Shown here piece by piece: positions 11,458 to 63,560 of a stretch of DNA of 64,000 nt (the stretch's first letter is position 1; the number at the start of each line of letters is the position of its first letter). The translations under genes were made by a program, and so were the position numbers. This DNA comes from a virus (taxonomy: Duplodnaviria; Caudoviricetes): the IMG/VR virus record IMGVR_UViG_637000339_000002; one strand, given 5' to 3'. The notes under the pieces were generated by a model. The model did not search any database. It worked only from the letters and a program-made list of their open reading frames with translations, and had not been told where the DNA came from.

Positions 11458-11461
11458 ATGT
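11458..11461 (+). pseudogene. 5' fragment (ATGT) of minor tail protein gpZ, the 5' exon of the intron
   Basis: ATG-T joined to CT-ATT-AAT... at 62842 (minus strand) reads MSINIEV... in frame with ORF 62325-62774. Confidence 0.8.
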
Positions 11462-13377
11462 GTGCGCCAAGAAGTGCGTAAGGAACAGTTGGTGAAAATC
11501 CAACACGGGTAAAGCTTAGCCGGCAACCTGGAACAAACCATTATGCTGCGTAAGGTAACGAGCGTAGTAAAGCTAATGGAATGGACAACATAGGGTGCAA
11601 CGAAAGTGAAGGTATTGAGTCCCGTAATTCACGCGTCATGGGGGCTGACACTTTACATTTGGTGGAAGGCAACATGGGTAATAACGCTAAGGCAAGATAT
11701 TACTCACCTCATCGGGATCGAAGGCCGCGTCATATGTTGAGATGGACCTTACGTGAACTTGGGAGATCCTTTGTATTCCTGTAAGGGTACTCTGGAACAA
11801 GTCAATAAAGGCGAGGACTGGAGGAAGATGCAAAGGAAGTCGGACTAACTGATAGTACTCGGAGTGTGGGAAAGCCACATACAAGGGGAAGCGGTTAGCA
11901 ATATAGTGACTGGTATAGGGATTGCTATACCAATACAACAGAGATTAGAGGAGTATGCAAGGAAAACTAAACCAGATAGCAGTAAGGGCTAAGCAAGATA
12001 AGCGAGTAAAATTTACATCATTAGTTCATTTGATTAATGAAGAGAATCTTGCAGAGTGTTATAAGGAACTAAAACGCAACAAGGCTTGTGGTATAGATCG
12101 TGTGACAGTGGAAGCTTATGGAGAAAATCTAGAAGAGAAACTTAAAACACTAGTGGATAGTATGAAGAGAAAACAATATCACCGCTACCAGTGAAAAGGG
12201 TATACATACCCAAAGCCGGGAGCAAAGAGAAGCGCGGTCTCGGAATACCATCAACGGAAGATAAGTTGGTACAGGTAATGCTAAAGAAGATATTAGAAAA
12301 TATTTATGAAGCAAACTTTATGGACAGCTCGTATGGATTTCGACCAGGAAGAAATTGTCATCAGGCGATAAACGCTCTAGATAAAGCAGTTATGCACAAA
12401 CCAATTAACTATATTGTAGAAGTGGATATCAAGAAGTTCTTTGATAATGTTCAACATAAATGGCTAATGAATTGTCTAAGGGAACGAATAGCTGACCCAA
12501 ATTTATTGTGGTTAATAAAACGATTTCTAAAGGCAGGAATAGTCGAAGTTGGATGTTATAAAGCAACCGATCAAGGCACACCACAAGGTGGTATAGTAAG
12601 CCCTGTCTTAGCTAATATATACTTACACTATGTGCTGGACTTATGGTTTGAAAAGAAATTTAAGCCAAAAGCCAGAGGATATTTACAGCTAATAAGGTTT
12701 TGCGACGATTTTGTAGTTGGCTGCGAGAGGGAAGAAGACGCAAAAGAATTTCTAGAATTACTGAAACAAAGACTAAGTAAATTTGGGTTGGAAATAGCTG
12801 AAAATAAAACAAAAATAGTAAAGTTTGGTAAGAAAGAATGGTATCAAGCAGAAAGAGAGAAACGTAGGACGGCTAGCTTCAACTTTCTAGGATTTACACA
12901 TTATTGTGGAAAAAGTCGTAATGGTAAACTTATGATGAAGCAGAAAACTTCAAAAATAAGCCTAGCCAGAAAGATTAAAGAAATCAAAGAATGGTTGAAG
13001 ATGGTACGAAGTCGTATCTGTCTCAAAGATTGGTGGCAGAAACTTAAAGCCAAACTAACAGGACACTATAGCTACTTCGGAGTTAGCGGAAATTATCGGT
13101 GTTTGATTCAATTCTATCGACCGGTAACAAAGTTAGCATTTAAGTGGATAAACCGACGTAGTCAAAAGAAAAGTATGGATTGGGAACAATTTATACACTA
13201 TTTAAAAGTAAATCCATTACCAAAACCAAAGGTATATGTTTCTTTATACACAGGAGCACTAGTGTGAACGCTGTATTGTGGAGCCGTGTGCGGGAAATCC
13301 GCAAGCACGGTTCTTTTGGGGAGACTATGGTTATGAGACCAAATCGCTGGTTTCAAGGTCATGAGTCTCTACCAGAC
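11462..13377 (+). mobile_element. Group II intron, full length, endonuclease-minus
   Basis: 5' GTGCG at 11462; domain V GAGCCGTGTGCGGGAAATCCGCAAGCACGGTTC at ~13282-13314; 3' ...ACCAGAC at 13377; loop ACATTT (11655-11660) complementary to exon AAATGT (11456-11461), consistent with EBS1/IBS1. Confidence 0.92.
11955..13267 (+). pseudogene. Intron-encoded reverse transcriptase/maturase, frameshifted near 12181
   Basis: KACGID, LGIP..EDK, SYGFRP, GTPQGG..SP.LANIYL, RFCDDF and domain X; expected Y.PLPVKRVYIPK is split by a 1-nt deletion. Confidence 0.9.
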
Positions 13378-13644
13378 CCCTCCCTTCAGAAAGCCCTATA
13401 TCTCTGCTTTTTTTGACTACTACAAAAGAAGCTTTTCTGTTGGAGACGTAAATAAACTTTGCTCTTTGTCTCCATTTTAAGCAGCAATCAAATTTTACGA
13501 GCTTCTGTCTCTTCTTCTATGGCAGTAACTTCAAACTTTTTTCCTTTAGCTTCATCTACAATTTGCTGATAAAGATTGTTTCATCACTGAGAGTTTTGCA
13601 ATCAATTGCTCAGAGGTTTGCAATAAAAGTTGTTGTATTCTCAT
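13378..13644 (-). pseudogene. Possible degraded ORF remnant cut by the intron
   Basis: GGAG then ATG at 13644, broken reading frames running up to the intron junction; no family recognised. Confidence 0.2.
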
Positions 13645-13974
13645 ATAGTCTCCATTAACCCCTTATACTCACCACAAGTTGTTCAATCTTTTTTGAAAAA
13701 CTTTCTTTGCAACCAACAAAAAAACATGATAGACTAGCTTTAGGGTTTTTTGTAATAAATAAAAATTTGAGATAAAAAATAATTTAGAAATGCCTCATAA
13801 TCGATTTTTAAGCTACCTTACATGAGCAACTTAGGTCTTGGTGGTATAATTGTACCCTGAAGTCGTAGAATCGTTTTAAAACCGCATTAGCAGACCAACG
13901 TTTATTTGAGTTTTATCAGCATAAAAAAAAGATGAGAGTAAGAGCCTTTTAAAAACGCACTAATTGTATTTTTC

Positions 13975-14280
13975 ATTAAATGTAAATATCTTAATAATAT
14001 TTTGTGGCAGCCTTTCTGGACTTCTTTCTTTTTGCTGTTTAAGTTATTGTACTTTATTTGTATTTTACTATTATTTTATATTATCTATTATTATTTATTA
14101 CTATTATATATATATAATATATAAGGGTTTTAGGAACGCAGAATCCGCTATAATGGCTGACTTCAGACACATAATAACTAGGAACACTTTTAGGAATAGA
14201 GGGCAAAAGGTTAGGATTCAAGCGATCTTTAGCTTCCTAGTTTCTCATTACTTATTTAGTAACCAAGGAATTAGGAATAT
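13975..14280. promoter_or_regulatory. Candidate phage replication origin (iteron-like TAGGAA repeats plus AT tract)
   Basis: TAGGA(A/T) at 14131, 14179, 14191, 14212, 14272; inverted copy at 14234; AT tract 14050-14123; immediately downstream of repA. Confidence 0.45.
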
Positions 14281-14431: not shown

Positions 14432-16627
14432 TTATCCTAACATTAAATTTTGCCTATAGCTAAAATCTTCAGCTCCAAGAGTGAACTTTCCTATACCACA
14501 AGCAAATGGTCCAGTTGGAATGTCAAGCCACTTATCCTCTTTTGCACCTGTAGACATTCCTTTAACTAACTGCTTTGCTTGTAAAAGTTCCTGAACTATA
14601 CGCTCTAGTCGATCTCTTCCCATACTGTGGAAAATCTCAGGTAGCCTATGCCGTTGTTTATATACTCCTGTGCTTCCTGTGTGAGTAAATGGGTGTCCTG
14701 CAACAGCAGATCGTGTAATTGCATCAGTAAGACATATTTTAAGGTCTTTTTCACTAGCATTTTTAACTGTTAGTTGTATTGTTATATCTTCTAGTAGCCC
14801 TGTTTCCTGATTTCTTAGGTAAGTTCTTACAGTGCGATCAGCTAAACCATTGGCCTTCACAACTGCCCCATGAAACAAAGCATTCTGTCTTGGTGTTTCT
14901 CCTACTGCCTTAAAGATTTCTAGCCTAGCTGTATTTTCTATTGGCCAAAAAGCGTATGAGCATCTAACACCATTAACAAGAGCAGAGGTACCTCTAATTG
15001 CATCGCGTGCTTGTTCAGCAGTTAATATTGGTTTTTCTCCTTTTGGCTTTCTCATGTGATGAGCAGTAATTATCGAAGCTCCAGTACTACATGCTAAATC
15101 AGATAATAAGCACATTAGATAATCCCCTACAGCAGGATCAGCATTTATATCTGCATGGATAAATGAAGCAAGTGGATCAAATACTATCAATTTCAGATCT
15201 TTAATTTCCTCGAGCTGTTTCATTACGGATTCGAATTCAGGAGAAACTTCGACGATTTTACCACGAACATTTCTGAGTATTGTAAGTGATCCTCTGACGT
15301 TTGGCAGTGGTACAATAAATAATTTATCTTTATGTTTCAACCTTTCACACTTAGGGTCGAGTCGTTCTAAGCGGCGGTGTATCTCACTTGCATCATCTTC
15401 TGCTGAAAAAATCACTACTGATCCATGTTCAGTAACAAGTGAACCAAAGCCACACATCTGATCCTTATCACTTGCAACCTTAAGCGCTAGGTCAAGAAGA
15501 AGCATACCTTTGCCTGTATCTCCCATTGCTGCTATTATTGAAGTAACACCTAAAGGAAATAGACCTTCAACAAGAAACTTTTGCTCTGGTACCGGACCTA
15601 CAAAGCGCTCTGCACTCCAATCTAAAATGTTAAGTGGCTGTTTTGTGGATCTTTCTAAACTTTTCATATTTGAAGTATCAGTAGCTGGAGTATCAATAGT
15701 AAGCAACGGAGTTGAAGCTAAAAACTCTTTGACATCTATACCTTCCTCTACACAATCAGCAGCATCCCATTTCTCAGGCTTACCTCGAGGAATTTCAAGC
15801 ACAGCAAGTGATGCAACTCCGATCTCTAAAAGCTTTTTTTCAGCATTTTTTGCGTATTTATTACCTGCTTCATCATTATCTGGCCAAATGATAATATGCT
15901 TACCTTTAAGTGGTGACCAGTCTGTTTTATCAATTGGTGCGTTTGCTCCAGACATTGCTGTTGTTGCTGTGATACCTTGTTCTATCAGCGCTTCTGCACA
16001 TTTTTCCCCTTCAACCAGAACAACTTTATCAGACTTTAAAATACTTGGTATGTTATAGAGAGGTCTTACTTTTGGCGCACCATACCGAGATTGTTTAACA
16101 TCAAAAGGCTTATATTGCTTTTTTCCTTTAGGAGGATCAGAACGATAAATTTTTACAATGACCTGACCATTTTCATCATAATAATTCCAACTGTGGGTAA
16201 TAAATTTCTCGAAGTCTTCGTCAGCCTTTGCGCATTTCTTGTTATATCCAAGACATTCACTTATAGAGGCCATCACTTCACAAAAGTCTCTCTTTGTATC
16301 TTTTCCCTGTGCACCTGCCCAAATATCAAGAACATCACCTTTCTGCCCAGTTGCAAAATCCTGCCAGAGTCCGGCTTTTCCACCAGTTAATGCTACTCTG
16401 AGGCTTTGTCCTTTGTTACCATGCACATCACCTATTCGGAATTCATCTCCATGAAAAGTTCCCCTTGGGAATAAATAAGAAAGGCATGATCTTATGTTTA
16501 ATAATAGTTGTCTTTTTATTTCTTCTACATCAAATTGCTCTAATGGTTCTACAGTATTATTAAAATCATAATATTCATCATTTAAAGTATTTTTTTGTTT
16601 GACATCAGTTAAAAAATCTTGTACCAT
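14432..16627 (-). CDS. repA: Primase-helicase RepA (Toprim plus RecA-like AAA helicase)
   Basis: LVEGEKCA, WPDND.AG, KWDAAD Toprim motifs; AMGDTGKG Walker A, IVFDP Walker B, HHMRK, RGTSAL. Confidence 0.9.
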   Translation of the reverse strand: MVQDFLTDVKQKNTLNDEYYDFNNTVEPLEQFDVEEIKRQLLLNIRSCLSYLFPRGTFHGDEFRIGDVHGNKGQSLRVALTGGKAGLWQDFATGQKGDVLDIWAGAQGKDTKRDFCEVMASISECLGYNKKCAKADEDFEKFITHSWNYYDENGQVIVKIYRSDPPKGKKQYKPFDVKQSRYGAPKVRPLYNIPSILKSDKVVLVEGEKCAEALIEQGITATTAMSGANAPIDKTDWSPLKGKHIIIWPDNDEAGNKYAKNAEKKLLEIGVASLAVLEIPRGKPEKWDAADCVEEGIDVKEFLASTPLLTIDTPATDTSNMKSLERSTKQPLNILDWSAERFVGPVPEQKFLVEGLFPLGVTSIIAAMGDTGKGMLLLDLALKVASDKDQMCGFGSLVTEHGSVVIFSAEDDASEIHRRLERLDPKCERLKHKDKLFIVPLPNVRGSLTILRNVRGKIVEVSPEFESVMKQLEEIKDLKLIVFDPLASFIHADINADPAVGDYLMCLLSDLACSTGASIITAHHMRKPKGEKPILTAEQARDAIRGTSALVNGVRCSYAFWPIENTARLEIFKAVGETPRQNALFHGAVVKANGLADRTVRTYLRNQETGLLEDITIQLTVKNASEKDLKICLTDAITRSAVAGHPFTHTGSTGVYKQRHRLPEIFHSMGRDRLERIVQELLQAKQLVKGMSTGAKEDKWLDIPTGPFACGIGKFTLGAEDFSYRQNLMLG

Positions 16628-17334: not shown

Positions 17335-20300
17335 TTATAGTGCATTTTTTATATTAACTAAATCTCTTAATTGATCGTTGTTAAATTCTGTAATCCAACT
17401 CTCGCCACTACTTATAGTTAGGTTTGCTAATTCCTTCTTGCTTTGAATCATCTCATCAATACGCTCTTCAAATGTACCTGTTGAAAGTAGCCTGTACACC
17501 ATGACATTACGTTCTTGCCCGATACGATAGGCCCGATCTGTTGCTTGTGCTTCCACTGCTGGATTCCACCATAAATCGTAATGTATTACATGGTTTGCCG
17601 CTGTTAAATTAAGCCCTGTTCCACCAGCTTTTAAAGACACTATAAGAATGTTGGACTGGAATAAGTTTTGAAAGTCATTAATCATTGTATCACGTGCTTT
17701 TCTAGAAAGTCCTCCATGTAAAAATGGCACTTCTGATTCAAACCTTTCTTCAAGTAGCCTAGCTATAATCTCACCCATTTCAGTGTATTGAGTAAATATC
17801 AATGATTTTTCTGCAACTTCACCAATACTAATCAATATTTCCTCAAGCATCTGCATTTTACCGGATTGTTCAATACTCGCACGCTTTTTCTTGCCAAACT
17901 GTGATGGATGGTTACAAATTTGCTTTAAAGCATTGATAAGTTTAAAGATTAGTCCCTTACGTTCAATCCCTTCACTTTTTTCTATCTTCTCCATAGTTGT
18001 ATCAACAACCTTTTGATAAAGCGCTGTTTGCTCTGAAGTGAGGGAACAATAACGATTGTTCTCAATTTTATCTGGTAAATCCTGAATAATGCTTTTATCA
18101 CTCTTAAGCCTACGTAACATAAAAGGGCTAGTGATTTTCATAAACCTTTCTAGACAAGTTTTATCTCTTGCTTTTTCAATCGGTGTTGCAAAGCTGCTTT
18201 TAAACTGCTTAGGAGTACCAAGATAAGATTTGTTGATAAAGTCAAAAATGCTCCAATACTCAAGCAACCTATTCTCAACAGGCGTACCACTCATAGCTAT
18301 CTTATGTTTTGCTGCAATAGTTTTAATTGCCTTGGTTTGTTCGGTATTAGGATTTTTTATATTTTGTGCTTCATCAATCACGAGCAAAAACCAGCGAATT
18401 TTATTAAGTTCTTTTTTATCACGACGTGCAAGACCATAGGATGTTAGAGCTACATCATAATCACTTGCCAATTCTCGATTTTGTCCGTGATAGACGAAAA
18501 GCTTTAATTCTGGTGCAAAACGTTCCATCTCTCGTTGCCAATTACTTAATATGCTTGTGGGAGCTACTACCAAGACTCTGTCCCGATCCAAAAACCCTGT
18601 ATTTTTGCAACACAGAATAGCTGCTATAACCTGTAATGTTTTACCAAGACCCATATCATCAGCAATTATGCTACCAAACCCGTTTTCTATGTTCTGTACA
18701 AGCCAACTAAATCCACGTTCTTGATATGGGCGTAGTTGTGCTATTAGATTATTTGGTGTAGTAACAGGTGTGTAAGTATTAAGTTTATTAAATAAGCTTG
18801 TAAGCTGCTGGTCAAATGCTACTTTAGTTTCATTTACTTCTCCTGTTAGAGCAGCTTGCATAAGCTCTGCTTGACTTAAATAATCAGGCAATTTATCAAG
18901 TTTTTTTAATAAAGCTTCTACCTCTTTGTCATCCAAAAGGACGTACTGATCGACTATTCGCACAAGCCCTCGGGAATCTTTTAGCAATTTTTTAAATTCT
19001 GTAACGCTTAGTTTTTTATCTCCTATTGCTACTTTCCAATCAAATTTCAATAAATTTTCCAGCGTTAAAAAGCTTTCGCGATCTTCTTTTATTTTATCTT
19101 TAGTAGACAAATTAAGACTTAATTGTGGTTTTAAGATTTTTTGTAAAGATTTCGGCAAAATAACTTTGATGCCTATTGCTCTTAGTACAGGCAAGATATG
19201 CAAAAATAATGGTGCAAAATTATCTAAATTAAATGATAATGTGCTATTATCGTCAATCGACTTTTCTAGTTCAGGTATATATTCAGACAAAAGTGCAAGA
19301 TCAGATAAAATACTAAGCTTTACGTTTTGATTAGAGAGTGCTTTTTCCAGCTTGATGAATGACTTCTCATCATCCAGTGATAACTGTACCTCAAGTTCAA
19401 ATTTTTCATGGTGATCTTTTATCATTAAATAGAGTTTGTAAGGTTTATCTGCTAAATAAAGACGTGAAAGCCAGAGATTAATTGCTTGCGGTATTTCCTT
19501 GTTGCTAAACTCAGTAAACTTGTATGATCTTCCAGTAAAGAATAATTCAAAGATGGATTTATCTCTATGCTTATCCAGTGATGCAGGAAAGTTATCTTCT
19601 ATATACCCTAAAAGGATGAGAGAGATAGCAACATTTACTTGTTCCTCTGGTTCCATAACGATTTCTTGATATTTAATCAATAGAGGCGGACAAATAGATG
19701 ATATCTTGCTATGAATTTCCTTAACTGACTCATTAAACAACGCCGGAATCCACCTAATTATTACTTCTCCTCTTTTGTTTTGTAATACTTGTGGTATTAG
19801 CGCTGACTTTTCCATTAGCATATGTGCAAACTGTGAAATCATATGCATGAAGCGAAGTTCAGGGTTAAGTTTGTGGAGTAACGAACTAGGAATATCATTT
19901 AAAAATCGTGCTACATCCCTCAATACATTTCCACTGAGCCTAAATAAATTAGTTGTACCATTGCTCACTTGAGTAAGGTAATGCTGATCATCAATGAATA
20001 GTTGAAATGTTTGCCAATTCTCAATATTTCCCCATCTTTTAATAAATAGCTCCTCTTCTGATAGTTCCTTCTTAGAAGCTGGATAGTACACTAATCTTCC
20101 TGCAGGATACTTTTGCCAATGCTTATAAGCTATCTGTAAGATATTATGAAAGTTTTTTTCAAAAAAAAGTGGATTATCTGTTAAAATACTACTGATACAA
20201 CCAAAAAGGTTAGGAATAGTTGATAAATCAATATCATTTAAAATTGCTTGGTTATGTATTCTAATTTTAGAACATGCCTTAAATATATCATCTATCTTTA

Positions 20301-20862
20301 AAATGTTTTGAGCATTTTCTAATTTTCCATTCCCAAAATCATCGATAAGTGCTGACAAATTACAATTATGAATATTAAAAATCATGAAGGGGTTTTTATC
20401 AATTTCTGCAGCAATAAGATAAATTACAGCAGCAATGTGTTTACAAGGCATAGCCCAATCAGGACAACTACAACTTGCATTCATCTCCTGCCAATTTGAA
20501 GGAAATAATTTAATCCCAAGATCATTAAGCTTATCAAACAAGCTGGCTGATAATTGTCTATTTATCAATTTAGCTAATATAGCTGGTGAAGTTTCAATAA
20601 TTTGACGAATGGTCTGTTGTTCTGATGAGCTTAATTCATTGAGTATAATTTTGACTTTATATGGTTGAGGTTTTGAACCACGATATGGGTAAGATCCTGA
20701 GCTATGAACTTTAGCTGTAACTATGTGACCATTAATTTTAATACCAAAAGCTCGACCAGTATTAGCACAAGTTCTGCCACGTGGAAGACGGTTATCATAA
20801 TCTATTCCGTCAAAAGACTGGAGCCACTTCTTACCCCACCATGTTCTTCCATAAATAGTCAT
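17335..20862 (-). CDS. SWIM Zn-finger plus SNF2-family helicase
   Basis: CSCPD...CKH SWIM motif; ADDMGLGKT, DEAQ, SGTPVEN, QATDRAYRIGQ. Confidence 0.93.
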   Translation of the reverse strand: MTIYGRTWWGKKWLQSFDGIDYDNRLPRGRTCANTGRAFGIKINGHIVTAKVHSSGSYPYRGSKPQPYKVKIILNELSSSEQQTIRQIIETSPAILAKLINRQLSASLFDKLNDLGIKLFPSNWQEMNASCSCPDWAMPCKHIAAVIYLIAAEIDKNPFMIFNIHNCNLSALIDDFGNGKLENAQNILKIDDIFKACSKIRIHNQAILNDIDLSTIPNLFGCISSILTDNPLFFEKNFHNILQIAYKHWQKYPAGRLVYYPASKKELSEEELFIKRWGNIENWQTFQLFIDDQHYLTQVSNGTTNLFRLSGNVLRDVARFLNDIPSSLLHKLNPELRFMHMISQFAHMLMEKSALIPQVLQNKRGEVIIRWIPALFNESVKEIHSKISSICPPLLIKYQEIVMEPEEQVNVAISLILLGYIEDNFPASLDKHRDKSIFELFFTGRSYKFTEFSNKEIPQAINLWLSRLYLADKPYKLYLMIKDHHEKFELEVQLSLDDEKSFIKLEKALSNQNVKLSILSDLALLSEYIPELEKSIDDNSTLSFNLDNFAPLFLHILPVLRAIGIKVILPKSLQKILKPQLSLNLSTKDKIKEDRESFLTLENLLKFDWKVAIGDKKLSVTEFKKLLKDSRGLVRIVDQYVLLDDKEVEALLKKLDKLPDYLSQAELMQAALTGEVNETKVAFDQQLTSLFNKLNTYTPVTTPNNLIAQLRPYQERGFSWLVQNIENGFGSIIADDMGLGKTLQVIAAILCCKNTGFLDRDRVLVVAPTSILSNWQREMERFAPELKLFVYHGQNRELASDYDVALTSYGLARRDKKELNKIRWFLLVIDEAQNIKNPNTEQTKAIKTIAAKHKIAMSGTPVENRLLEYWSIFDFINKSYLGTPKQFKSSFATPIEKARDKTCLERFMKITSPFMLRRLKSDKSIIQDLPDKIENNRYCSLTSEQTALYQKVVDTTMEKIEKSEGIERKGLIFKLINALKQICNHPSQFGKKKRASIEQSGKMQMLEEILISIGEVAEKSLIFTQYTEMGEIIARLLEERFESEVPFLHGGLSRKARDTMINDFQNLFQSNILIVSLKAGGTGLNLTAANHVIHYDLWWNPAVEAQATDRAYRIGQERNVMVYRLLSTGTFEERIDEMIQSKKELANLTISSGESWITEFNNDQLRDLVNIKNAL

Positions 20863-22317: not shown

Positions 22318-22351
22318 CTATATTTTTTTATTCATTGATCCTTAATTTAAG

Positions 22352-27356: not shown

Positions 27357-27359
27357 TAT

Positions 27360-52237: not shown

Positions 52238-55138
52238 ATGGATACAGGGTCAGTAAAATATATTGCAGAATCTATCAGTGAACAAAGCAAACACACTGAT
52301 GAGCAAAAACTGAAGTGTGACCTAAGTGCTGGACAAGAGTTTTCAGAAATAGGTAGCCCAAAAACAGAAGCAACTGGATTACCAGTAGATAGTTATTATG
52401 AATTCATTAAGCGAGATTTGTTTTGGGCTGATAGAAGTTTGATAGATGATAAAAAATACTTAGAGGATTTAATAGATGAGTGGTTTATTCATGCACCTAA
52501 CTTAGGACTGGAAGAGAGTCAAAAAAAGTTAAATCAAAAATTACTCAATAGTATTATAAAAGATTTTAATATGGGAAATTATGACTCATTTTCAAATCTT
52601 AAGCAGTTTTTAGAAAGTAACGAGAAAAATAAAGACCTGAAGTACGTTCTTAATCTAAAAAGAGGGCATCTAGGAACAACAATATTGAACGTGTTTCTCG
52701 AATACGACGAAATTATTCCTTCTCTTCTCAAAGCTGGTGCTGATCTAAATATGCAGGATAATAAAGGTAAAACACTTTTGCATGATACTGCTATTTATTC
52801 TAGTGGATATGAAGATCTTGGGTATCTCTTAGATGCAAAAGCTGATCCAAATATACAAGATGAAAAAGGTAACACACCTTTACACTATTATGCTGCTAAG
52901 TGTAGTGATCAAAGCAGAAAAACTATGGATTTGCTCATAAGCAAAGGAGCTGATTTAAGCATAAAAAATAACGATGGAAAAACTCCACTGCAAGTTGCAA
53001 TTGATAATGACAACATTATAGGATGTTTATTAACTAATAGTCAAAAAAAATTAAGAGAGCAACTAGGTAAAATGCTTCTCGCTACAAGTTCTGATGAAGA
53101 TTGGGATAATGCTTATGATCCAGAGGTTGAAAATCTAAGAAAGTTTTTAAATCAATATGAAAATGACAACGACTTAAAGATAGTTTTAAATGTTAAGGAT
53201 GATAGTTCAGTACTTCTTGATTCGCCATCTCGTCGATTTCCTAATGTAAAAGCCTTGCTCTTAAAAGCAGGAGCAGCTGATTTTATAGGTAAAAAACAAG
53301 ACAATTATGAAAAATGCGATAGTTTTTTATCAGAGATTTATCAAATAAATTACCTTGCTAAACGCAATGAGTTTTTAAGTAAGGTAGTAAAAGCTAAAAG
53401 CATGATTGAATTACAAGAAGTTGTAAATGAGATTATAGCTTCTGGAATGAGATTAAATTTTGCTAAAGACAAAGATTATTACTTTGCAGATCACGTACTA
53501 GAAAAAATTGCTCAGCTAGAAGGAAGCTATGGAATTGCCAGTGATATAGTATGTACATTAATATCAAGAGGAGCAAAGTTAAAAAGGTCAGAAAGTTTAA
53601 AAGTCATTGATACAATAGAATTAAAGTTCAAAGCTCATAAGGCTAATATGATCAGTGCTCATTTAGAGTATGTTAGTAATACTGAGGAATTTTTTAGAAT
53701 TGCAAAGGCTGCTACCAGCGGTCAACTATATGATGGAAAAATCGATAATAATGTATTTTACTTAGAATACTCAGAGGATAGTATAATAGATGTTGCAAGA
53801 ATCACAGATAGAACAAGAAATCTGGAACTAATTCAGGAATCATATAGAAGGGATATAATAAAAATTGGCAAAAGTAAGATGGAAATTATAACCGAAAACG
53901 GCATAAGGTATTACACAGATCTTACAGAAGGCAGCGATATAGTATTAACTTTCTATACTAGTTTGGGAAATATAGACCTTAGACTGTATCCTGACATACA
54001 GGATAAAAGCAAGATTATAGTAGAAGTGAGTAATAGAGAAGAAATATTAGAAAAATTCAAAGGTCGCGAAGAAGAGTTAGGCAATGATTGCGCGCTCGGT
54101 GGCTACTCGGTCTACAATGCTATTGAACAGGGATATTTTGAAAGGTCTAGAAAATTAATGCGTCCTGAAGTCATAAGCGAGTCTAACAACAAATGGACAG
54201 AACGTGAAGAGTTAAGAAGGGATTCTATGGAGGAAATTGCTAGAAGGCATAAGTTATTACAAGATTTACGCAATATTGAGTCTAATATTGTACAAAAGGA
54301 GAAGAATTTTGACATAAAAACTTACCTGATAGACATCTTTAAAACTTTATCTAGGTTCTATGAAGAAAAAGGGGATATTTCTAAAACAGACTTAGCTAAA
54401 GCAGCAGAAAAGGAAAGTAAAAAATTGGGGTTAGAAGGTAAATACAACTGGAGTAAGATTTTTGGTTTAGAGGAAGAAATTATTGAAAAGGTAGAAAAAC
54501 AAGGTGATAAAGAGCAAAAATCAAACATACCTGATGACTTCTATCTAGGGCACGCAATCAATAATGGAAGCTGTTTTTTTGATTCATTCAGGCAAAGTCT
54601 AGAACAACAGAAGGGAATCAAAGTTACTGTAGAGCAGTTAAGGAATGAGTGTAAGAGATTTGCGCAAGACAATCCTCCAGAGTGGTTTATAAGTAAAATT
54701 GGCAATGACTTTGATGAGGTTGAAAGTGAGCTCGTAAATCGTGGAATTACGTGTAACCAATATATCAATAGCATTGGAAAGAATGAATTTTGGGGACGTT
54801 CCGATATCGAGGGCAGAGTACTTTGTGATAAGTATGGTGTGAAATTGCATGTTGCAGAAAGTAACCCATTGCACACTATTGATAAGCAACAAGATCCGTT
54901 CTTGCATCAGTTAATAGATAGCTCAAGATCAAAAGCAGGTAAGATAGATTATAGTCACAATAGTGCCTTACATATGGTAAATGGAGGCCATGATCATTTT
55001 CAACCCCTACTTTATAGAAATAAGACCTTGGCAAAACAAACGCAAGAACAAAAAGATTCCTTATGCTATTCAAGCTTGCCAAGCTGTAGTATGGATGAGT
55101 TAAAAATAGAAAAAGCCAACATAAGGCACTGCTTGTAA
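52238..55138 (+). CDS. Ankyrin repeat protein with C-terminal OTU-like cysteine protease domain
   Basis: GKTLLH, GNTPLH, GKTPLQ ankyrin repeats; NNGSCFFDS...WG....EG...HFQPL OTU pattern. Confidence 0.85.
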   Translation: MDTGSVKYIAESISEQSKHTDEQKLKCDLSAGQEFSEIGSPKTEATGLPVDSYYEFIKRDLFWADRSLIDDKKYLEDLIDEWFIHAPNLGLEESQKKLNQKLLNSIIKDFNMGNYDSFSNLKQFLESNEKNKDLKYVLNLKRGHLGTTILNVFLEYDEIIPSLLKAGADLNMQDNKGKTLLHDTAIYSSGYEDLGYLLDAKADPNIQDEKGNTPLHYYAAKCSDQSRKTMDLLISKGADLSIKNNDGKTPLQVAIDNDNIIGCLLTNSQKKLREQLGKMLLATSSDEDWDNAYDPEVENLRKFLNQYENDNDLKIVLNVKDDSSVLLDSPSRRFPNVKALLLKAGAADFIGKKQDNYEKCDSFLSEIYQINYLAKRNEFLSKVVKAKSMIELQEVVNEIIASGMRLNFAKDKDYYFADHVLEKIAQLEGSYGIASDIVCTLISRGAKLKRSESLKVIDTIELKFKAHKANMISAHLEYVSNTEEFFRIAKAATSGQLYDGKIDNNVFYLEYSEDSIIDVARITDRTRNLELIQESYRRDIIKIGKSKMEIITENGIRYYTDLTEGSDIVLTFYTSLGNIDLRLYPDIQDKSKIIVEVSNREEILEKFKGREEELGNDCALGGYSVYNAIEQGYFERSRKLMRPEVISESNNKWTEREELRRDSMEEIARRHKLLQDLRNIESNIVQKEKNFDIKTYLIDIFKTLSRFYEEKGDISKTDLAKAAEKESKKLGLEGKYNWSKIFGLEEEIIEKVEKQGDKEQKSNIPDDFYLGHAINNGSCFFDSFRQSLEQQKGIKVTVEQLRNECKRFAQDNPPEWFISKIGNDFDEVESELVNRGITCNQYINSIGKNEFWGRSDIEGRVLCDKYGVKLHVAESNPLHTIDKQQDPFLHQLIDSSRSKAGKIDYSHNSALHMVNGGHDHFQPLLYRNKTLAKQTQEQKDSLCYSSLPSCSMDELKIEKANIRHCL

Positions 55139-55544: not shown

Positions 55545-57014
55545 TTATAAATCAAGACCATAGAATTTCTCCCTTTGCTCACTCCACAGCATCGGTATTT
55601 CTTTTAAATCAACTAACTTCAAACCCCTTGGCTGCCTCCCATTTACTATATCTTCCTTAATCTTTGGTGCTAAATAATTTAATCTTAAAATTTGCTGTAT
55701 ACGTCTTGTACCTACGTTTATTTTCTTACTCAGCTCTTTCACACTTCTATATTTTCCTTCTTCCAATTGCCGTTTCCAGGAATGGGCTCTCACCACTGCC
55801 TTCAATAGTGCATTATTTGTTTTACCTTCTGGTTCGATTACTATGCATTTGTTTCCTTTCTTCTTCATTGGTATAAATTTTTCCTCTGATTCAGAACACA
55901 CTTCTATTCCATCTTCTTTTACCATTACTCCCTTTATTAATTTTTTCATTGCTTCTTTCTGTTCTCTGAAGCTTAAATTTTCTCCATCCCCATATAAGCA
56001 TTCGGCTCTTTTCATCACTTCTTTTTCTATTTCCCCAGCTACTATAGTTCGATTTACTGATTCACAATTCTTCCCCCTTAAGTGATTGTTGCATACGTAA
56101 TATCTATACCTTTTGTTCTCTTTTTTTGAGTATGTCAGAGTCATATTTACATCACAGCTCTTGCACTTGATTATTCCCTTTAGCAGTGCTTCCTCATATT
56201 TTGCTTTTCTATGTGGCTGATTACTTATCAATTCCTGCGCTTTTTGCCATTTTTCTTCTTCTATTATCGCTTCATGCTTTCCTTTATACTGTTTCTCATA
56301 ATGCCTGATTTTTCCCATATATATTGGGTTTGTTATTATTCTCCTCACTGTTGCCTTTTTAAAGATATCTGATTTTGCTTTCGTTCGATATCCTTCTCTG
56401 TTTAACTCTCTTGCCAATTCTGCCATTGACTTCAGCTCCATATACCTCTCAAATATATGCTTTATTATTTTTGCTTCTTTTTCATTTATTATTAATTCCT
56501 TTTCTTTTACATCATAGCCAAGCGGTGGATTTCCTCCCATCCATAACCCTTGTTCTTTCGATGTTGCTATTTTATTTTTTACTCTCTCTACTATCATTTC
56601 TCTTTCTAGTTGTGCCGCCCCTGATAGCACTGTTTGTACAAATTTTCCCATTGGCGTATTATTGTCGAATATTTGTGTTACTGCTACAAAACTTATCCGG
56701 TGCCTTCTAAAAAATGATGTTACTTCTATGCAGTCCTTTGTTTCTCTTGATAACCTATCTAGCGTATATACTACTACACAGTCGACTTCTCCTACCTTTA
56801 CATCTTCAAACAATTCCTTTATCGCTGGTCTATTCAAATTACTCCCTGAGAACCCTCCATCATCGTACTTTTTTGCCAATGCTACCCACCCTTCTCGGCT
56901 TTTTATATACTTCTCACATACTACTCGCTGTGCATCTAAACTATTAAACTTTTGTTCTAGCCCGTCTTCATTTGATTTTCTCGTATATATCGCGCATCTT
57001 ACCTCTTTCAGCAT
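55545..57014 (-). CDS. Large serine recombinase
   Basis: AIYTRKS, DGGFSG...RP, DRLSR; recombinase domain NPIYMG; Zn ribbon CKSC...YVC. Confidence 0.93.
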   Translation of the reverse strand: MLKEVRCAIYTRKSNEDGLEQKFNSLDAQRVVCEKYIKSREGWVALAKKYDDGGFSGSNLNRPAIKELFEDVKVGEVDCVVVYTLDRLSRETKDCIEVTSFFRRHRISFVAVTQIFDNNTPMGKFVQTVLSGAAQLEREMIVERVKNKIATSKEQGLWMGGNPPLGYDVKEKELIINEKEAKIIKHIFERYMELKSMAELARELNREGYRTKAKSDIFKKATVRRIITNPIYMGKIRHYEKQYKGKHEAIIEEEKWQKAQELISNQPHRKAKYEEALLKGIIKCKSCDVNMTLTYSKKENKRYRYYVCNNHLRGKNCESVNRTIVAGEIEKEVMKRAECLYGDGENLSFREQKEAMKKLIKGVMVKEDGIEVCSESEEKFIPMKKKGNKCIVIEPEGKTNNALLKAVVRAHSWKRQLEEGKYRSVKELSKKINVGTRRIQQILRLNYLAPKIKEDIVNGRQPRGLKLVDLKEIPMLWSEQREKFYGLDL

Positions 57015-57460: not shown

Positions 57461-57919
57461 TCATAATTTCTCAAATAACTTTTCTATTCTGTCTGTTTCT
57501 TTCTTCAATACTTCAGTTACCTCTTTACTATTTTTCGCATAATCCATCGCTGTCATCCCAAATTTATCTGCTTGTTCTATTTCAGCCCCTGCTTTTACTA
57601 GCTCCTCCACTATTTCCACTTTCCCCACCATACATGCAAGGTGCAGCGGTGTGCATTTACTGCCATACTCTTCAGCATTTACATTCCCTCCTGATTTTAT
57701 CAATTCTCTAACTGTTTCTAGACGTTTCTCCGTTATCGCTAGGTGCAGTGCTGTATATCCTTCTACATCCGCTGCATTCACATTCGCTCCTTTTTCAACT
57801 AATAAGCTCACTGTTTTTCCGTCTACTGCATAATGCAGTTCCTTTTTTGTCCCCTTAATATTTTTACCTGAGTTCTCTAATAATTCTTTTAGTTCATCCT
57901 CTTTTTCTTTTTTACTCAT
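57461..57919 (-). CDS. Ankyrin repeat protein
   Basis: GYTALHLA, TPLHLAC, GMTAMDYA. Confidence 0.9.
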   Translation of the reverse strand: MSKKEKEDELKELLENSGKNIKGTKKELHYAVDGKTVSLLVEKGANVNAADVEGYTALHLAITEKRLETVRELIKSGGNVNAEEYGSKCTPLHLACMVGKVEIVEELVKAGAEIEQADKFGMTAMDYAKNSKEVTEVLKKETDRIEKLFEKL

Positions 57920-57944
57920 AACCTACCTCACCTTTTCTTTAAAT

Positions 57945-58718
57945 TTAAGTCCCTTTTTTAATTCTCACCACCTCATCTATCATTTCGTTTACTTGGCACA
58001 TTATCTTGGTTGCTAAATTTTGACATTCTTTCTTTATTAATGATTTGTCTCTCTTCCTTATTTCTTCGATCTCCATTATTTTTAGCTCTGGCATATAGCT
58101 CCTATCCAACTTGTCTGCTATTTCTCCCACTAGCCCCTCTATTCCATAGCACGTCAGTTTTCTACTTTTTGTTACTCCACCTTTTGCTCTCAAAAATTTA
58201 CTTGCCTTTTCACTCTCTTCCCTATCACATAGATAATACTTTTCACTTTCCCATATGTAATACATTGGTGTTGAACCATACTTATTCAGTTGATTAACTT
58301 CAGATCCTGCTTTTACTAGCTCTTTTATTATTTCAACTCCTGCTCCTCCTATTTTACATGCAGAGTGCAGTGGCGTACATCCACTGACATATTGAGTGGC
58401 ATTTATTTCCGCTCCTGACCTTAGCAGTACTTTTACATTTTCTAAACTTTTTGCGAATACTGCACAGTGCAGTGGCGTATAACCATTTTTATCTCTTGCA
58501 TTGATCTCCGCCCCTTTTTCTATTAATAACCTCACTGTTTTGTGATCGGAATTTTCTACTGCATGGTGCAATACTGTTTCTCCTTTTTCATCCCTTTTAT
58601 TAATATTTTTAAATCCATTCCTTGATACTTCTTTAAAAAACTTGTTAAAAGATTCTTTCTTTTCTTCGCTGAACCCCATTTCATACCTCACAAAATTATC
58701 TTTTCTAGCGCCAGACAA
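57945..58718 (-). CDS. Ankyrin repeat protein (true start probably slightly downstream)
   Basis: GETVLHHA, GYTPLHCA, GCTPLHSA. Confidence 0.9.
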   Translation of the reverse strand: MSGARKDNFVRYEMGFSEEKKESFNKFFKEVSRNGFKNINKRDEKGETVLHHAVENSDHKTVRLLIEKGAEINARDKNGYTPLHCAVFAKSLENVKVLLRSGAEINATQYVSGCTPLHSACKIGGAGVEIIKELVKAGSEVNQLNKYGSTPMYYIWESEKYYLCDREESEKASKFLRAKGGVTKSRKLTCYGIEGLVGEIADKLDRSYMPELKIMEIEEIRKRDKSLIKKECQNLATKIMCQVNEMIDEVVRIKKGT

Positions 58719-58846: not shown

Positions 58847-60007
58847 TTAATATATTAAACATATTACTTGTTTCTCTTCCCAACCTCTGTTCAAATGACG
58901 ATGTTCGTGCCACGTTAGTACGCCTGGGTAAAACACTAAAACGTAATTTTCCGGTTCATGTATTGAATCCTTTTGCTCTGAATTTAAATCCCTTTCAAAA
59001 TGAATATTGTGCTCTGCCACACCAAATATTATAACTTTTTGGTTGGTAAAATCTTCTACTTTGTAGTGGTGAGTAACGCTAAACCTTTCTAAAATTGGCT
59101 TGTGTTTTAAATTCCACAGTTGTTCAGATAGTTTATCACTTCCTAGTAAAAATTTACTTCCTTTCTCTTCTCCACTCGTAACCGGAAAACACGCGTTTAT
59201 TTCTCCTAAGTTCCAGCTATCTGATAATACTATCTGCGCTTTAGCAAACTTAATCTTAGGTAATAAGCTCTGTGGTAGCGGATATAGCGCTTTGAAGTTA
59301 TACCACACATGATTTCGTTCATAAATACCGTTGTAGTTCTTAGTATGAGGCTCGGTTTCTCCAAGTATTGCTACATCCAAGCGATATATGTCATTGCTTA
59401 AAGCTCGTTCATAATGATCGCGTAGATAGTTTTCTACAATCCTAATAACCGGACCATGAGACCTGAAAAAATTTACTCTTCCAAATGATAAAACTGGCCC
59501 ATCTTTTTCTATTTTTACCCCGGAATAATCCGATAATAAACTTCCGAAAAAACTCTCATCCAATATGAACCTGCTAATGTTGTAATAATCGTTAAAAATC
59601 CTCATTAGCCTCGATCTTGCAGGCAATGATAGTTTTGCTAGTTCTACTACTGCATCAACGAAGAAGTCATTCAGAACATCTTTTATCCCTATCTGCAGTT
59701 CAAAGAAGTGCTTGCCAGATGGTTCTTCGATAATTGTAATATCTTCTATATTTGCCCATTTTAGTGCTATTTTCAGTGAAGCAGGTGTTCCTCTTAAACG
59801 CTGAAATTTTATCCCTTTTTTTATCGCCTTTCTTTTGTCTTTTACCCAATGTAGGATTTCTCCTAGCCCATATTCCTCTATTATCCATGGCAACACTTTT
59901 TCCCCTTGGCTAAATTTAAACCCTCTGATACAACCAGGATCTACTTTGTAATCTATTGCATCAACCAGCGCTTTTTCCTTTTTTGTTGCGTTTGGCGGTA
60001 ATAGCAT
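58847..60007 (-). CDS. Phage tail/baseplate protein (P2 gpI-like)
   Basis: LLPPNAT..E, LPW...EYGL, RGTP..L..AL, P.RS; follows gpJ. Confidence 0.8.
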   Translation of the reverse strand: MLLPPNATKKEKALVDAIDYKVDPGCIRGFKFSQGEKVLPWIIEEYGLGEILHWVKDKRKAIKKGIKFQRLRGTPASLKIALKWANIEDITIIEEPSGKHFFELQIGIKDVLNDFFVDAVVELAKLSLPARSRLMRIFNDYYNISRFILDESFFGSLLSDYSGVKIEKDGPVLSFGRVNFFRSHGPVIRIVENYLRDHYERALSNDIYRLDVAILGETEPHTKNYNGIYERNHVWYNFKALYPLPQSLLPKIKFAKAQIVLSDSWNLGEINACFPVTSGEEKGSKFLLGSDKLSEQLWNLKHKPILERFSVTHHYKVEDFTNQKVIIFGVAEHNIHFERDLNSEQKDSIHEPENYVLVFYPGVLTWHEHRHLNRGWEEKQVICLIY

Positions 60008-60798
60008 TAATTTAACTCAACATTTAAACTTTTTAAGAAAGCGCACTCATTTCCTTTCACAACTATGTCTTCTCTTGGCTCTATTAATTCCACGTTTTCT
60101 ACTCCTTCCATAAACAAATTGGCTATTATCCATGATCTTGTTACCTTCCATCCTAATCTTTTCGTTGTTCCAAATTTTTCGATAAATTTCTTCTTCATCG
60201 TTTCAATAATATCTGGTCTTTTAATGCTAATTTTACTGTGGATATCTATTTCTATCATATTGCAACTTACCACTTCAACTGTATCTGTTAAAATCCTCAC
60301 ATCCTCCCTGTTTAGCTGATTTTTGACAATTTCTAGTAATTCTTCTTGCAGTGTGGATAATTCTGTGGATAAGATTGAAACTTGTACTTTCCCTGGTATA
60401 GGTGATTCTACTAATGCATCCTTTACTCTACTATCTGCTGACAGTGCATGATATCGATAGTGTTCTTTACTTCCTCCCGTGCTCCAGCCTATTATCTTTG
60501 CTTTAATTATTTTTCTAAAACGTTCGTCATCTTCTTCTTTCTGCCTCTCCACTCCATAAAATTCAGCTAAATTATCAAGATCTTCTCCTGTCGCAAACTT
60601 AAGTAAATTACTCTTTACTGCTTCGTTTATCCTTTGTCTCAGCAAAAGCTCTCTCCAGGCTGCTACTTCTAATACCTTCATCGCTGAGTCACTTTCTACT
60701 AATGCCGTAAAACTTTCATCTCGACTTATTAATTCTTCTTTCATACGTGAAAAGATTTCTTCGAAGTTCAGTGGCTCAATAATGTTAGTCTGCTGCAT
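60007..60798 (-). CDS. Baseplate assembly protein J
   Basis: AWRELLLRQRINEA, A.G.DLDNLA, S.GG...Y.YHALSAD..V. Confidence 0.9.
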   Translation of the reverse strand: MQQTNIIEPLNFEEIFSRMKEELISRDESFTALVESDSAMKVLEVAAWRELLLRQRINEAVKSNLLKFATGEDLDNLAEFYGVERQKEEDDERFRKIIKAKIIGWSTGGSKEHYRYHALSADSRVKDALVESPIPGKVQVSILSTELSTLQEELLEIVKNQLNREDVRILTDTVEVVSCNMIEIDIHSKISIKRPDIIETMKKKFIEKFGTTKRLGWKVTRSWIIANLFMEGVENVELIEPREDIVVKGNECAFLKSLNVELN

Positions 60799-60800
60799 CT

Positions 60801-61136
60801 TTATACTACAACCTCATCGAAGCGAATCTTTTTCCCCATTGGTACGTACAACCCTTCCAGGTCAAGCGTTACTTTTCCCTCTTTTACTTCTGTCATTTTT
60901 ACTTTTTCTAATTTAAACCTTTTTTCCCATTTTTCCAAAGCTTCTGCAGTTGCTGCGTAAATTTCTAGTGTTAAATCACGATTAACTGGCTTATCCAATA
61001 ATTCAAATAGCCTAGACCCGTAATTCCTCATCATAATTCGTGATCCTATAGGAGTCGTAAGTATATCAATTATTGATTGCTTTAAGTGCTCTATTCCTTC
61101 TAACGCTTTTCCTGTTTTACCATCCATACCCTTCAT
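60801..61136 (-). CDS. Baseplate assembly protein W (gp25-like)
   Basis: HLKQSI.DILTTPIGSR....YGS, WE.R. Confidence 0.9.
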   Translation of the reverse strand: MKGMDGKTGKALEGIEHLKQSIIDILTTPIGSRIMMRNYGSRLFELLDKPVNRDLTLEIYAATAEALEKWEKRFKLEKVKMTEVKEGKVTLDLEGLYVPMGKKIRFDEVVV

Positions 61137-61138
61137 TT

Positions 61139-61393
61139 CTATTTTGCAAAGACGCTTTTACTGCCTTTTATTACTTTTAACCCACAAGATACTGAATCCC
61201 CTACTCTTCCTACACCATGACCATTTGCAAACACTGTTTTTGATCCTTGAATCATTACTTTTCCTTCGTTAAAATTGTCTCCTTTCCTACAGACTGGGAA
61301 ATCATTTACAAAAACATTATTACTGCCGCTAATGCAAAAATGTGGTGTTGCTTCTCCACAATAATCTCCTACTCGCACAACTGATTTATTCAT
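61139..61393 (-). CDS. PAAR-domain spike tip protein
   Basis: Repeated R.GD...GS..VF.N units. Confidence 0.85.
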   Translation of the reverse strand: MNKSVVRVGDYCGEATPHFCISGSNNVFVNDFPVCRKGDNFNEGKVMIQGSKTVFANGHGVGRVGDSVSCGLKVIKGSKSVFAK

Positions 61394-61400
61394 TTTCCAA

Positions 61401-61865
61401 TTAATTAAGTTCTATTCTATCTGCTTTCAGTTTTATTTCGCTCCTTGTCATCTCTAGACTTGATTCCCCAGCTTTCAATGTTATTTTGTCCACTACTTCA
61501 ATCTCTAAATGATGCTTCTCTTTATCATATAACAATCTTGTCCCATCTTGAATTTTTACACTATTTATTTCTTTTTTATTCTCTGGTGCAGGGTATTTTT
61601 CCTGATATATTCCTGCTAATACCACCCCTAATGATAGTTCTCCTAGCGCAGAAAGTATAATAACCTGTTCATCGATATCTGGAGGAGACCAATTTCTATC
61701 TTTTCCTGCTTTACTTGTTATCCATGGCAACCAATCTGTTAAAAATTCCCCTATTTGCACTTTTACTCTCGCTTTTTCATAATCTACTTCTTTCACAAGC
61801 CCAATACGTATAATGTTAGCTAACTTTCTTTGCAACTCTGAAATAGCAAAATTACTTTCCAACAT
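61401..61865 (-). CDS. Baseplate spike protein V
   Basis: IR.G.V..VD...ARV, TDWLPW...AG....W.PP...EQV, DG....YD. Confidence 0.9.
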   Translation of the reverse strand: MLESNFAISELQRKLANIIRIGLVKEVDYEKARVKVQIGEFLTDWLPWITSKAGKDRNWSPPDIDEQVIILSALGELSLGVVLAGIYQEKYPAPENKKEINSVKIQDGTRLLYDKEKHHLEIEVVDKITLKAGESSLEMTRSEIKLKADRIELN

Positions 61866-62328
61866 TTATTTCACCGATTTCTATTTTGTGTGGCATAAAT
61901 TTTCCCTCTTCCCAAATAGATCGACCCAAGTGTACTTCATGCACCCAGTCTACCATCCACACTAAATACGCGTCTAATTCTGGCCTAAATCCGTCAATTT
62001 CTGCTGATATAAATTCACCTGGCGAAACATTTTTTACGTTCCAAGTATTTTTATTTACTACTCTCGCAACCTCAGCAGCTAATTCTCTGACAATAATAGC
62101 TGCATTCTCTATTGTGCTATCAATCACAATTCGTGCCTCAAATCTTGCTTTCAGGGCTAATTCTTCTGTTCCTGAATCTTTTCCTTGCTCTAAACTTGAC
62201 AATTCCACAAATACCGCTGGTGCTACTATTTCCCTTCTTATCATTGGATATATTTCACATGTCTGTATCGCTGGTATTTCTTTCTTCAACATTCTGCAAA
62301 TTGCTTTGTGCAACTCAATTAAAATCAT
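61852..62328 (-). CDS. Tail terminator/collar-like protein
   Basis: Lies between gpZ and gpV; PAVFVEL and W.V.W patterns. Confidence 0.6.
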   Translation of the reverse strand: MILIELHKAICRMLKKEIPAIQTCEIYPMIRREIVAPAVFVELSSLEQGKDSGTEELALKARFEARIVIDSTIENAAIIVRELAAEVARVVNKNTWNVKNVSPGEFISAEIDGFRPELDAYLVWMVDWVHEVHLGRSIWEEGKFMPHKIEIGEINVGK

Positions 62329-62842
62329 ACTTTTACAATATAGTTTAATTCACGCTCAAAATATTTCTCAAATATCCCTTCTGTTTCATAATTAACTAGC
62401 TCCTTTATTATTTTTGATGCTTCTGGTTCCAGTCCTAATTTTACCTCTTGTATTGGCAAAGCTGTTCTTCCTTCACGCCTAAAAACACCACTATTTCCTC
62501 TTGGCATTGTTGCCATAAATCCTCCTATAAACTTATGTTTTCCTACTTTCGCTCCTTTTCTTGTTTGTCTCATCTTGCCAATTGCTGATACCCTAATATC
62601 ATATAAATTTGCTCTCATTAATACATCTAACCTACTTGTCTTAGCCTTAAAAATTCTTAGCCTTTTTCTCATTACCGTTAATTTTATCTTCTTTTCCTCA
62701 CTAATTTCCTTAGCTGCTTGCGTTTTTAACCATAGTGCTGTTTTGTTCAATGCCCTCACCGCTGCTTTTTCCACTTTTTTCCTTTCAGCATTTACATTTT
62801 CAATTACCTTATTAATATTATCGGTAACTTCTATATTAATAG
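62325..62842 (-). pseudogene. Minor tail protein Z, separated from its start codon
   Basis: RALNKTA, F.A.M..G..GVF.R.G...LPI motifs; frame open to the intron junction at 62842. Confidence 0.85.
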
Positions 62843-63560
62843 GTCTGGTAGAGACTCATGACCTTGAAACCAGCGATTTGGTCTCATAACCATAGTCTCC
62901 CCAAAAGAACCGTGCTTGCGGATTTCCCGCACACGGCTCCACAATACAGCGTTCACACTAGTGCTCCTGTGTATAAAGAAACATATACCTTTGGTTTTGG
63001 TAATGGATTTACTTTTAAATAGTGTATAAATTGTTCCCAATCCATACTTTTCTTTTGACTACGTCGGTTTATCCACTTAAATGCTAACTTTGTTACCGGT
63101 CGATAGAATTGAATCAAACACCGATAATTTCCGCTAACTCCGAAGTAGCTATAGTGTCCTGTTAGTTTGGCTTTAAGTTTCTGCCACCAATCTTTGAGAC
63201 AGATACGACTTCGTACCATCTTCAACCATTCTTTGATTTCTTTAATCTTTCTGGCTAGGCTTATTTTTGAAGTTTTCTGCTTCATCATAAGTTTACCATT
63301 ACGACTTTTTCCACAATAATGTGTAAATCCTAGAAAGTTGAAGCTAGCCGTCCTACGTTTCTCTCTTTCTGCTTGATACCATTCTTTCTTACCAAACTTT
63401 ACTATTTTTGTTTTATTTTCAGCTATTTCCAACCCAAATTTACTTAGTCTTTGTTTCAGTAATTCTAGAAATTCTTTTGCGTCTTCTTCCCTCTCGCAGC
63501 CAACTACAAAATCGTCGCAAAACCTTATTAGCTGTAAATATCCTCTGGCTTTTGGCTTAA
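62843..63560 (-). mobile_element. Group II intron, 3' 718 bp of a second copy, interrupted by an IS
   Basis: Reverse complement of 12660-13377; identical RT C-terminal translation, domains V and VI present. Confidence 0.93.

Follow-up and report, generated by a model that had tools for sequence, protein, structure and literature searches.

The DNA analysed here, called the window throughout (64,000 nt), is the last 64 kb of the 101,979-bp virus record IMGVR_UViG_637000339_000002, trimmed so that its ends fall at gene ends. It covers the right-hand 64 kb of a WO prophage that is integrated in Wolbachia and carries eukaryotic-association genes. The gpZ gene of this prophage is split 4 nt past its start; ATGT stands at the end of the head operon, the body of the PF06763 gene lies on the opposite strand at the far end of the window, and each part adjoins a copy of the same group II intron. 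Reciprocal homologous recombination between the two inverted intron copies very probably flipped the segment 13378-62842 (~49.5 kb). The exons at the intron borders are swapped and the gene order in relatives is un-inverted, and together these two observations point to a crossover between the inverted introns as the cause. The features at the two breakpoints are as follows.

11458..11461 (+), orphan gpZ start (ATG + T), the end of 5' exon A, which abuts the gpZ body in L006, L028 and WOVitA4
11462..13377 (+), group II intron copy 1, full length and chimeric, with 5' exon A and 3' exon B (RF02005, RF00029, TIGR04416)
13378..13432 (+), start of 3' exon B, the native partner of the other intron copy, found behind an unrecombined intron in G002 and at an empty site in G003
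62325..62842 (-), gpZ body (3' exon A), minus the first codon and one base (PF06763, phrog_27)
62843..63560 (-), group II intron copy 2, 3' 718 nt only (RF00029 match at 62843-62941 (-))
63561..64000 (+), insertion sequence (IS) of the IS4/IS5 family, which truncates copy 2 and within which the record ends (PF13340)

Copy 1 matches RF02005 over domains D1-D4 (11495-11727 (+), 132 bits) and RF00029 over D5-D6 (13279-13377 (+)); the latter model scores 51.4 bits in both copies, with a gathering score of 40. Its ends, GTGCG at 11462 and AGAC to 13377, agree with the conserved 5' GUGYG and 3' AY. An open reading frame (ORF) at 12191-13267 encodes the group II reverse transcriptase (RT)/maturase (TIGR04416, 317.1 bits with a cut-off of 300; PF00078). 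The RT/maturase gene is frameshifted near 12180 by a 1-nt deletion relative to G002, leaving ORFs of 81 and 368 amino acids, and is intact elsewhere (439 amino acids in G002 and 449 in G004). An earlier sequence-only reading of the window had described two inverted copies sharing 718 bp. This was confirmed: the arms 12660-13378 and 62842-63560 form an inverted repeat of 719 nt, 100% complementary and 49,463 nt apart, which consists of 718 intron bases plus one exon C common to both copies. Candidate pairings of exon-binding and intron-binding sites (EBS-IBS) are present at intron positions 194-199 (ACATTT/AAATGT) and 244-249 (CACCTC/GGGGTG), in an atypical order. The four 5' exons, which include those of two copies seen as loose ends, are alike in having a G-rich tract and then an A/T-rich stretch to GT. 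Both insertion sites also occur empty, as is expected of homing sites: site A in L006 and L028, and site B in L032.

At site A, the ATGT at 11458-11461 begins one base past the TAA (11454-11456) of the head-tail attachment ORF 11151-11456. Joined to the 3' exon of copy 2, it gives MSINIEV..., in frame with the PF06763 Minor_tail_Z/phrog_27 protein. In L006 (G001) and L028, the 311-nt 5' flank of copy 1 and the gpZ flank of copy 2 (518 nt and 259 nt, respectively) are present at 100% identity and abut each other without an intron; chance is excluded by this exact abutment in two independent records. The gpZ body is 100% identical to gpZ of L006, and WOVitA4 has the same uninterrupted junction at ~83% identity. 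Splicing of copy 1 as it stands would yield a product of 25 amino acids (MSLPSESPISLLFLTTTKEAFLLET*), and not the 13 amino acids given in the sequence-only reading.

A query with the gpZ protein found a head gene (capsid, head-tail, or both) just upstream of gpZ and on the same strand in 25 of 25 IMG/VR loci, and an MSINIEV-type gpZ directly follows the head-tail gene also in WOVitA4, WOVitA2 and WOcauB1. A query with the head-tail protein gave 15 loci in genome contigs; gpZ is adjacent in 11 of them, another insertion of 1.4-1.5 kb intervenes in three, and the contig ends in one; the intron of the window was not found between the head-tail gene and gpZ in any of these 15. It is present, however, in L007 (G004:C1:20700-22616), where a copy with 97.6-98.5% identity and an intact ORF lies at the same position 4 nt into gpZ. 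G004 is otherwise a canonical WO provirus, and its flanks are only 81-88% identical to those of the window. The higher identity of the intron than of its flanks suggests independent homing, and this intron appears to use the gpZ start, within a phage late gene, as a recurrent homing site. With an intact intron at the identical gpZ position and the canonical gene order, G004 represents a natural intermediate. Neither the 5' exon A/intron junction nor the exact 40-nt IS/intron junction had a match in viral or metagenome contigs, among which records close to the genome of the window may be missing.

Site B is resolved by two other relatives. G002 has a full intron with its own 5' exon, followed by the sequence of window 13378-15030, and matches window 11447-15030 at 99.67% over 3,587 nt. 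Its 5' exon B (...GGGGGGTGAAAAATTGT) is intergenic, between RepA2 and the ParB/methylase gene, and is not a gpZ start; a separate head module with its own ATGT in front of copy 2, which would have spoken against the exon swap, is therefore not what the native 5' exon reveals. A second head module, ~80% identical to that of the window, is present in G002, its ParB/methylase gene lying ~1.9 kb from the intron. In G003, site B is empty, and the sequence is colinear with window 35963-14056 (94.25%, 22,086 nt) and then continues into the ParB/head block. It is in these two IMG/VR records, G002 and G003, that the first 32 nt past copy 1 recur. Within 3' exon B, a terminator-like hairpin (13406-13432) is a consensus match only.

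The gene order of relatives is un-inverted over 18.5 kb and 22 kb of the segment. G001 is colinear with window 44286-62842 (98.94%, 18,583 nt) and runs straight into 11461-6069 (99.89%, 5,395 nt), so that its order (head, gpZ, baseplate, ankyrins, recombinase, cargo) is un-inverted. Together, G001 and G003 support the predicted ancestral order over 40.5 kb of the 49.5-kb segment. All four flanks of the two introns are accounted for in these relatives, an inverted repeat lies exactly at both breakpoints, and the flanks are exchanged relative to the unrearranged genomes. The swap and the split of gpZ at the intron borders and the placement of gpZ directly behind the head-tail gene in the IMG/VR loci, WOVitA4, WOVitA2 and WOcauB1 all bear out what the sequence-only reading had expected.

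These arrangements can be explained by the following series of events. Copy A would have homed in sense orientation into the start of gpZ, among its first codons and 4 nt past the ATG, and copy B would have sat in antisense orientation in the intergenic site by the second RepA gene, ~49.5 kb away and past the baseplate, recombinase and cargo genes. A reciprocal crossover between the inverted copies A and B would then have flipped all that lies between them (13378-62842). The IS5-family element would have entered the copy beside gpZ before or after this crossover. As a result, the head operon would end with ATGT, the chimeric intron and the old 3' exon B with its terminator-like hairpin, whereas gpZ and the baseplate genes, deprived of the gpZ start codon, would face the opposite way 49.5 kb downstream. 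The order of these events, a RecA-type recombination and fixation in the lineage are likely parts of this scheme. An origin by integration of a circle at the intron (Campbell type) was rejected, since it would give direct repeats, not inverted ones.

Several points weigh against the inversion. The interval 35963-44286 is covered by no relative, which leaves room for an additional internal rearrangement. At the junction of the intron and 3' exon B (13376-13380), a C is missing relative to G002 and G003, perhaps through a homopolymer error or perhaps as a genuine change. Differences from the G002 intron fall on both sides of 12660, and the crossover cannot be placed by them. The 5' 1198 nt of copy 2 and its 5' exon B would lie beyond the IS, outside the record. 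In addition, sequencing-run contigs stop at 11447-11489 and at 13348-13378 in four of four runs, and the linkage across copy 1 rests on the record itself.

The run data consist of Logan (short-word) contigs, queried with words from 10500-14500. At least 0.89 of the words were present in 21 of the 24 runs listed, and the runs holding the stretch or a part of it come from 14 studies. Contigs of four runs, each from a different study, cover all bins and agree with the window at every letter, and the depth is ~2-5 fold higher in the intron. The junction of 5' exon B with the intron 5' end, which is predicted by the inversion, was found in contigs of three of these four runs, and the likewise predicted intron/gpZ junction was found in one. 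Both orientations share all four exon-intron junctions, and short words therefore cannot tell them apart. The question arises whether the introns are real but the wrong flanks were joined across the identical repeat during assembly, the true order being canonical. The perfect repeat, the raised intron depth and the lack of any contig bridging the intron in the four runs would all fit such an artefact. The 102-kb record, however, crosses the whole ~0.93-kb IS and the 1.9-kb multi-copy intron, where the Logan contigs break, so that long-range assembly data probably lie behind it. Moreover, the same layout with a 34.7-kb spacing was described for WO-B of wMel by several groups, as far as the relevant passages of their papers go (PMC368164, PMC3173496, PMC4223829, PMC9203015). 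We consider an assembly artefact highly improbable.

The remaining genes of the window are listed below, and define the prophage type and the content of the flipped segment.

1115..2380 (+), ParB-like/DNA methyltransferase, first gene of the head-side block (phrog_498, phrog_8071)
4355..6178 (+), terminase large subunit (phrog_15, E 1.6e-255)
7055..8499 (+), portal gene, frameshifted near 8312 (tblastn with the WOVitA1 portal)
8505..11053 (+), head protease gpC, decoration protein gpD and major capsid protein gpE (phrog_53, phrog_49, PF03864)
11151..11456 (+), head-tail attachment gene (FII-like), last of the head operon (PF05354, 50.2 bits)
14432..16627 (-), second RepA-like primase/helicase, Toprim + AAA_25 (PF13481, PF01751)
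17335..20862 (-), SNF2-family helicase (PF00176, PF12419, PF00271)
21556..35802, eleven-gene metabolic/transport island, Undecim-cluster-like (eleven ORFs with Pfam matches)
36286..41204 (-), HTH_XRE regulator paralogues, WO-PC2-like (PF01381)
37223-38131 (-), wmk (NF047948, 445.7 bits with a cut-off of 300)
39440-40096 (-), RadC (PF04002)
46118..51118 (+), pair of ORFs, 474 and 1173 amino acids, in the place of cifA/cifB (by position and size)
52238..55138 (+), ankyrin-repeat protein (PF12796)
55545..57014 (-), large serine recombinase, phage integrase type (PF00239 + PF07508 + PF13408)
57461..58718 (-), two ankyrin-repeat genes (tblastn with WOVitA1 gwv_1153 and gwv_1154)
58847..62328 (-), baseplate module: gpI, gpJ, gpW, PAAR, gpV and a conserved hypothetical protein (tblastn with WOVitA1 proteins, 57-81% identity; phrog_9992)

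The first ~14.5 kb of the record hold bacterial genes (SecA, FolD, NuoD and others), followed by patatin, tail, tail-fibre and replication genes, all on the minus strand. The plus-strand head block that opens the window (ParB/methylase, terminase, portal, protease, gpD, gpE and the head-tail attachment gene, to 11456) is divergent from them, and the WOVitA1 phage genome has the same divergent layout of tail/replication versus head genes. The sheath, tape measure and tail-fibre genes lie on the other side of the head module and on the opposite strand, as in canonical WO. The sequence-only reading had stated that the tail genes were cut off from the head operon; this is correct for gpZ and the baseplate module, but not for these three. 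The presence of a large serine recombinase, a lambda-like head, a P2-like baseplate, the eleven-gene island, an HTH_XRE/RadC cluster and wmk assigns the prophage to the sr3WO type (WOMelB-like).

The Pfam families of the island are NTP transferase, epimerase, glycosyltransferase/radical SAM, PhyH, ABC transporter, two beta-eliminating lyases, MFS, UDP-glucose dehydrogenase and EamA; the name Undecim cluster is taken from passages of PMC9203015. Between the regulator cluster and the cif-like pair lie a PD-(D/E)XK Rpn-type transposase gene at 41307-42203 (+) and a gene at 43446-45875 (-) for an 809-amino-acid protein with a TomO-type hydrophobic C-terminal domain (NF047986). The ORF pair at 46118-51118 had no match in Pfam or NCBIfam, and none by tblastn in the phage collection. 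The pair is taken for cifA/cifB from its position and size, a label that no family model confirms.

Three further observations concern the phage genes. Compared with WOVitA1, ~690 nt (6401-7090) are additional between gpW and the portal gene, with a 93-amino-acid ORF (6707-6988), and this extra stretch is common to G001. Rfam WsnRNA59 (114 bits) matches at 11038-11126 (-), antisense to the capsid gene at its 3' end; expression work on wMel reported in a passage of PMC4683655 found abundant antisense RNA across the capsid gene of WO-B. The serine recombinase region (55000-57000) has 133 substitutions in 2 kb relative to G001, compared with 0-9 per kb elsewhere. Because only this stretch diverges so strongly, a replacement of the gene by recombination is suggested.

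The IS beside copy 2 contains an ORF (63620-64000) matching PF13340, the N-terminus of IS4/IS5 transposases. A second copy is present in the record in inverted orientation (441 nt identical at contig 35568-36008); it stands in the replication block and interrupts sequence that is contiguous in G004. The two IS copies (contig 35090-36020 and window 63561-64000) are mutually inverted and ~65.5 kb apart, and represent a second possible substrate for inversion. As an origin of the present layout, IS-IS recombination was rejected; on the head side it would leave half an intron, whereas the window has the full intron with 3' exon B behind it.

The layout itself is in print for WO-B of wMel, as the sequence-only reading had suspected, and the passages concerned contain no intron mechanism. 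In the window, the distance from the SNF2 gene to the recombinase (20862 to 55545) is 34,683 nt, and the blocks B1 and B2 of WO-B are given as '34.7 kb' or '35 kb' apart in the relevant parts of PMC3173496 and PMC4701759; the separation of head and baseplate by ~35 kb in wMel thus matches the spacing of the window. The P2-like block is described as inverted, with intervening genes, relative to wAu, whose blocks are contiguous (PMC4223829, in the passage on this region). In the portions of the papers that deal with it, the split was called a 'major rearrangement and translocation' (PMC368164), was read as an insertion of laterally acquired genes (PMC3173496), or was described as 'rearranged... 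reflects active phage particles' (PMC9203015). The two introns and the severed gpZ start are not named in the passages of PMC368164, PMC3173496 and PMC4223829.

According to the insertion view of Kent et al. 2011 (PMC3173496, in part), foreign DNA, some of it shared with a Rickettsia plasmid, came to lie between the head and baseplate genes. The eleven-gene island and other cargo are indeed located in the intervening block, and the view is stated in the relevant section of that paper. An insertion, however, would neither invert the baseplate block nor leave inverted introns with exchanged exons, and G001 already has the cargo beside the recombinase in un-inverted order. We regard this explanation as extremely improbable.

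Could the inversion be a switch? The sequence-only reading proposed that the arms flip at low frequency, which would leave gpZ with an intron that can be spliced out and make the late operon work again. A perfect inverted repeat of 719 nt is a substrate for homologous recombination, and there is no physical bar to a flip back. Deletions and an inversion arose in Wolbachia cell lines where identical copies of mobile elements recombined, and the variants coexisted for long (PMC13719037, in the passages on these variants). Nevertheless, the intron RT/maturase is frameshifted, and contigs from four of four runs carry no other letter or indel at that place, although rare variants are lost from contigs. 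A 1-nt deletion near 8312 also throws the portal gene out of frame: in tblastn, the WOVitA1 portal aligns to the window in two pieces in different frames (residues 1-408 and 405-470), whereas it aligns without a break over residues 1-470 to G001, whose head block is 99.89% identical to that of the window. The broken replication-block sequence described above also argues against a switch, and the segment encodes no recombinase other than a large serine integrase, which is not linked to the intron sequences. Evolved Wolbachia lines showed no change in prophage regions, in the corresponding part of PMC13719037. A flip back would keep a broken-maturase intron in gpZ and a frameshifted portal, which speaks against a working expression state in each orientation, and nothing in the data shows the two orientations side by side. 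The reversible switch is quite improbable, and the intron inversion looks like prophage decay.

Invertible phage segments of the Mu G type affect genes at the end of the tail and rely on a dedicated invertase and short specific sites, with both states functional. None of these features (dedicated invertase, short specific sites, two functional states) was seen in the window. In a related scenario, which we rate very unlikely, the arms would still recombine, so that in a small share of chromosomes the head, gpZ and baseplate genes would be joined again around a full-length intron, and a maturase from another intron copy would aid splicing, thereby gating tail completion and acting as a stochastic brake on phage production.

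In the wMel layout, RNA-seq showed baseplate genes at appreciable levels and head genes at low levels (PMC4683655, expression passages). Expression of the baseplate genes in this matching layout indicates that the severed block is transcribed on its own. Promoter-like matches within the IS are consensus hits only.

Intron-associated rearrangement has precedents in Wolbachia. In the text and the S9 legend of PMC9203015, intron RTs are noted at the borders of WO rearrangements, and inversions, duplications and recombinations are listed for the same phage group. The legend lists WOMelB only for a duplication, and the internal cargo is likened there to the synteny of phage particles. Unlike the present analysis, these passages contain neither an exon-level reconstruction nor a split of gpZ. 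The loss and amplification of Octomom, as described in parts of PMC3861217 and PMC13719037, involve homologous recombination between identical intron copies in closely related strains, one of the copies being interrupted by an IS5-type element, as in the window. The Octomom repeats are direct and lead to deletion or amplification, whereas those of the window are inverted and lead to an inversion that breaks a phage gene. We found no statement of an intron-intron crossover splitting gpZ in the parts of the literature searched; earlier work on Wolbachia group II introns, or supplements, may hold one.

Intron-mediated inversion adds no new kind of mechanism. What the window provides is a base-level cause for a long-noted oddity in the layout of a much-studied prophage with cytoplasmic-incompatibility and male-killing genes: the separation of head and baseplate is a flip by intron crossover and not inserted DNA, and it removed the start codon of a tail-completion gene. 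Comparisons of modules with other WO phages are corrected by taking the inversion into account, and the junctions are simple PCR targets for strain typing. If the stochastic gating scenario were true, a brake on phage production would sit next to the cif and wmk cargo. The split of gpZ helps to explain why this type of prophage is thought to be inactive.

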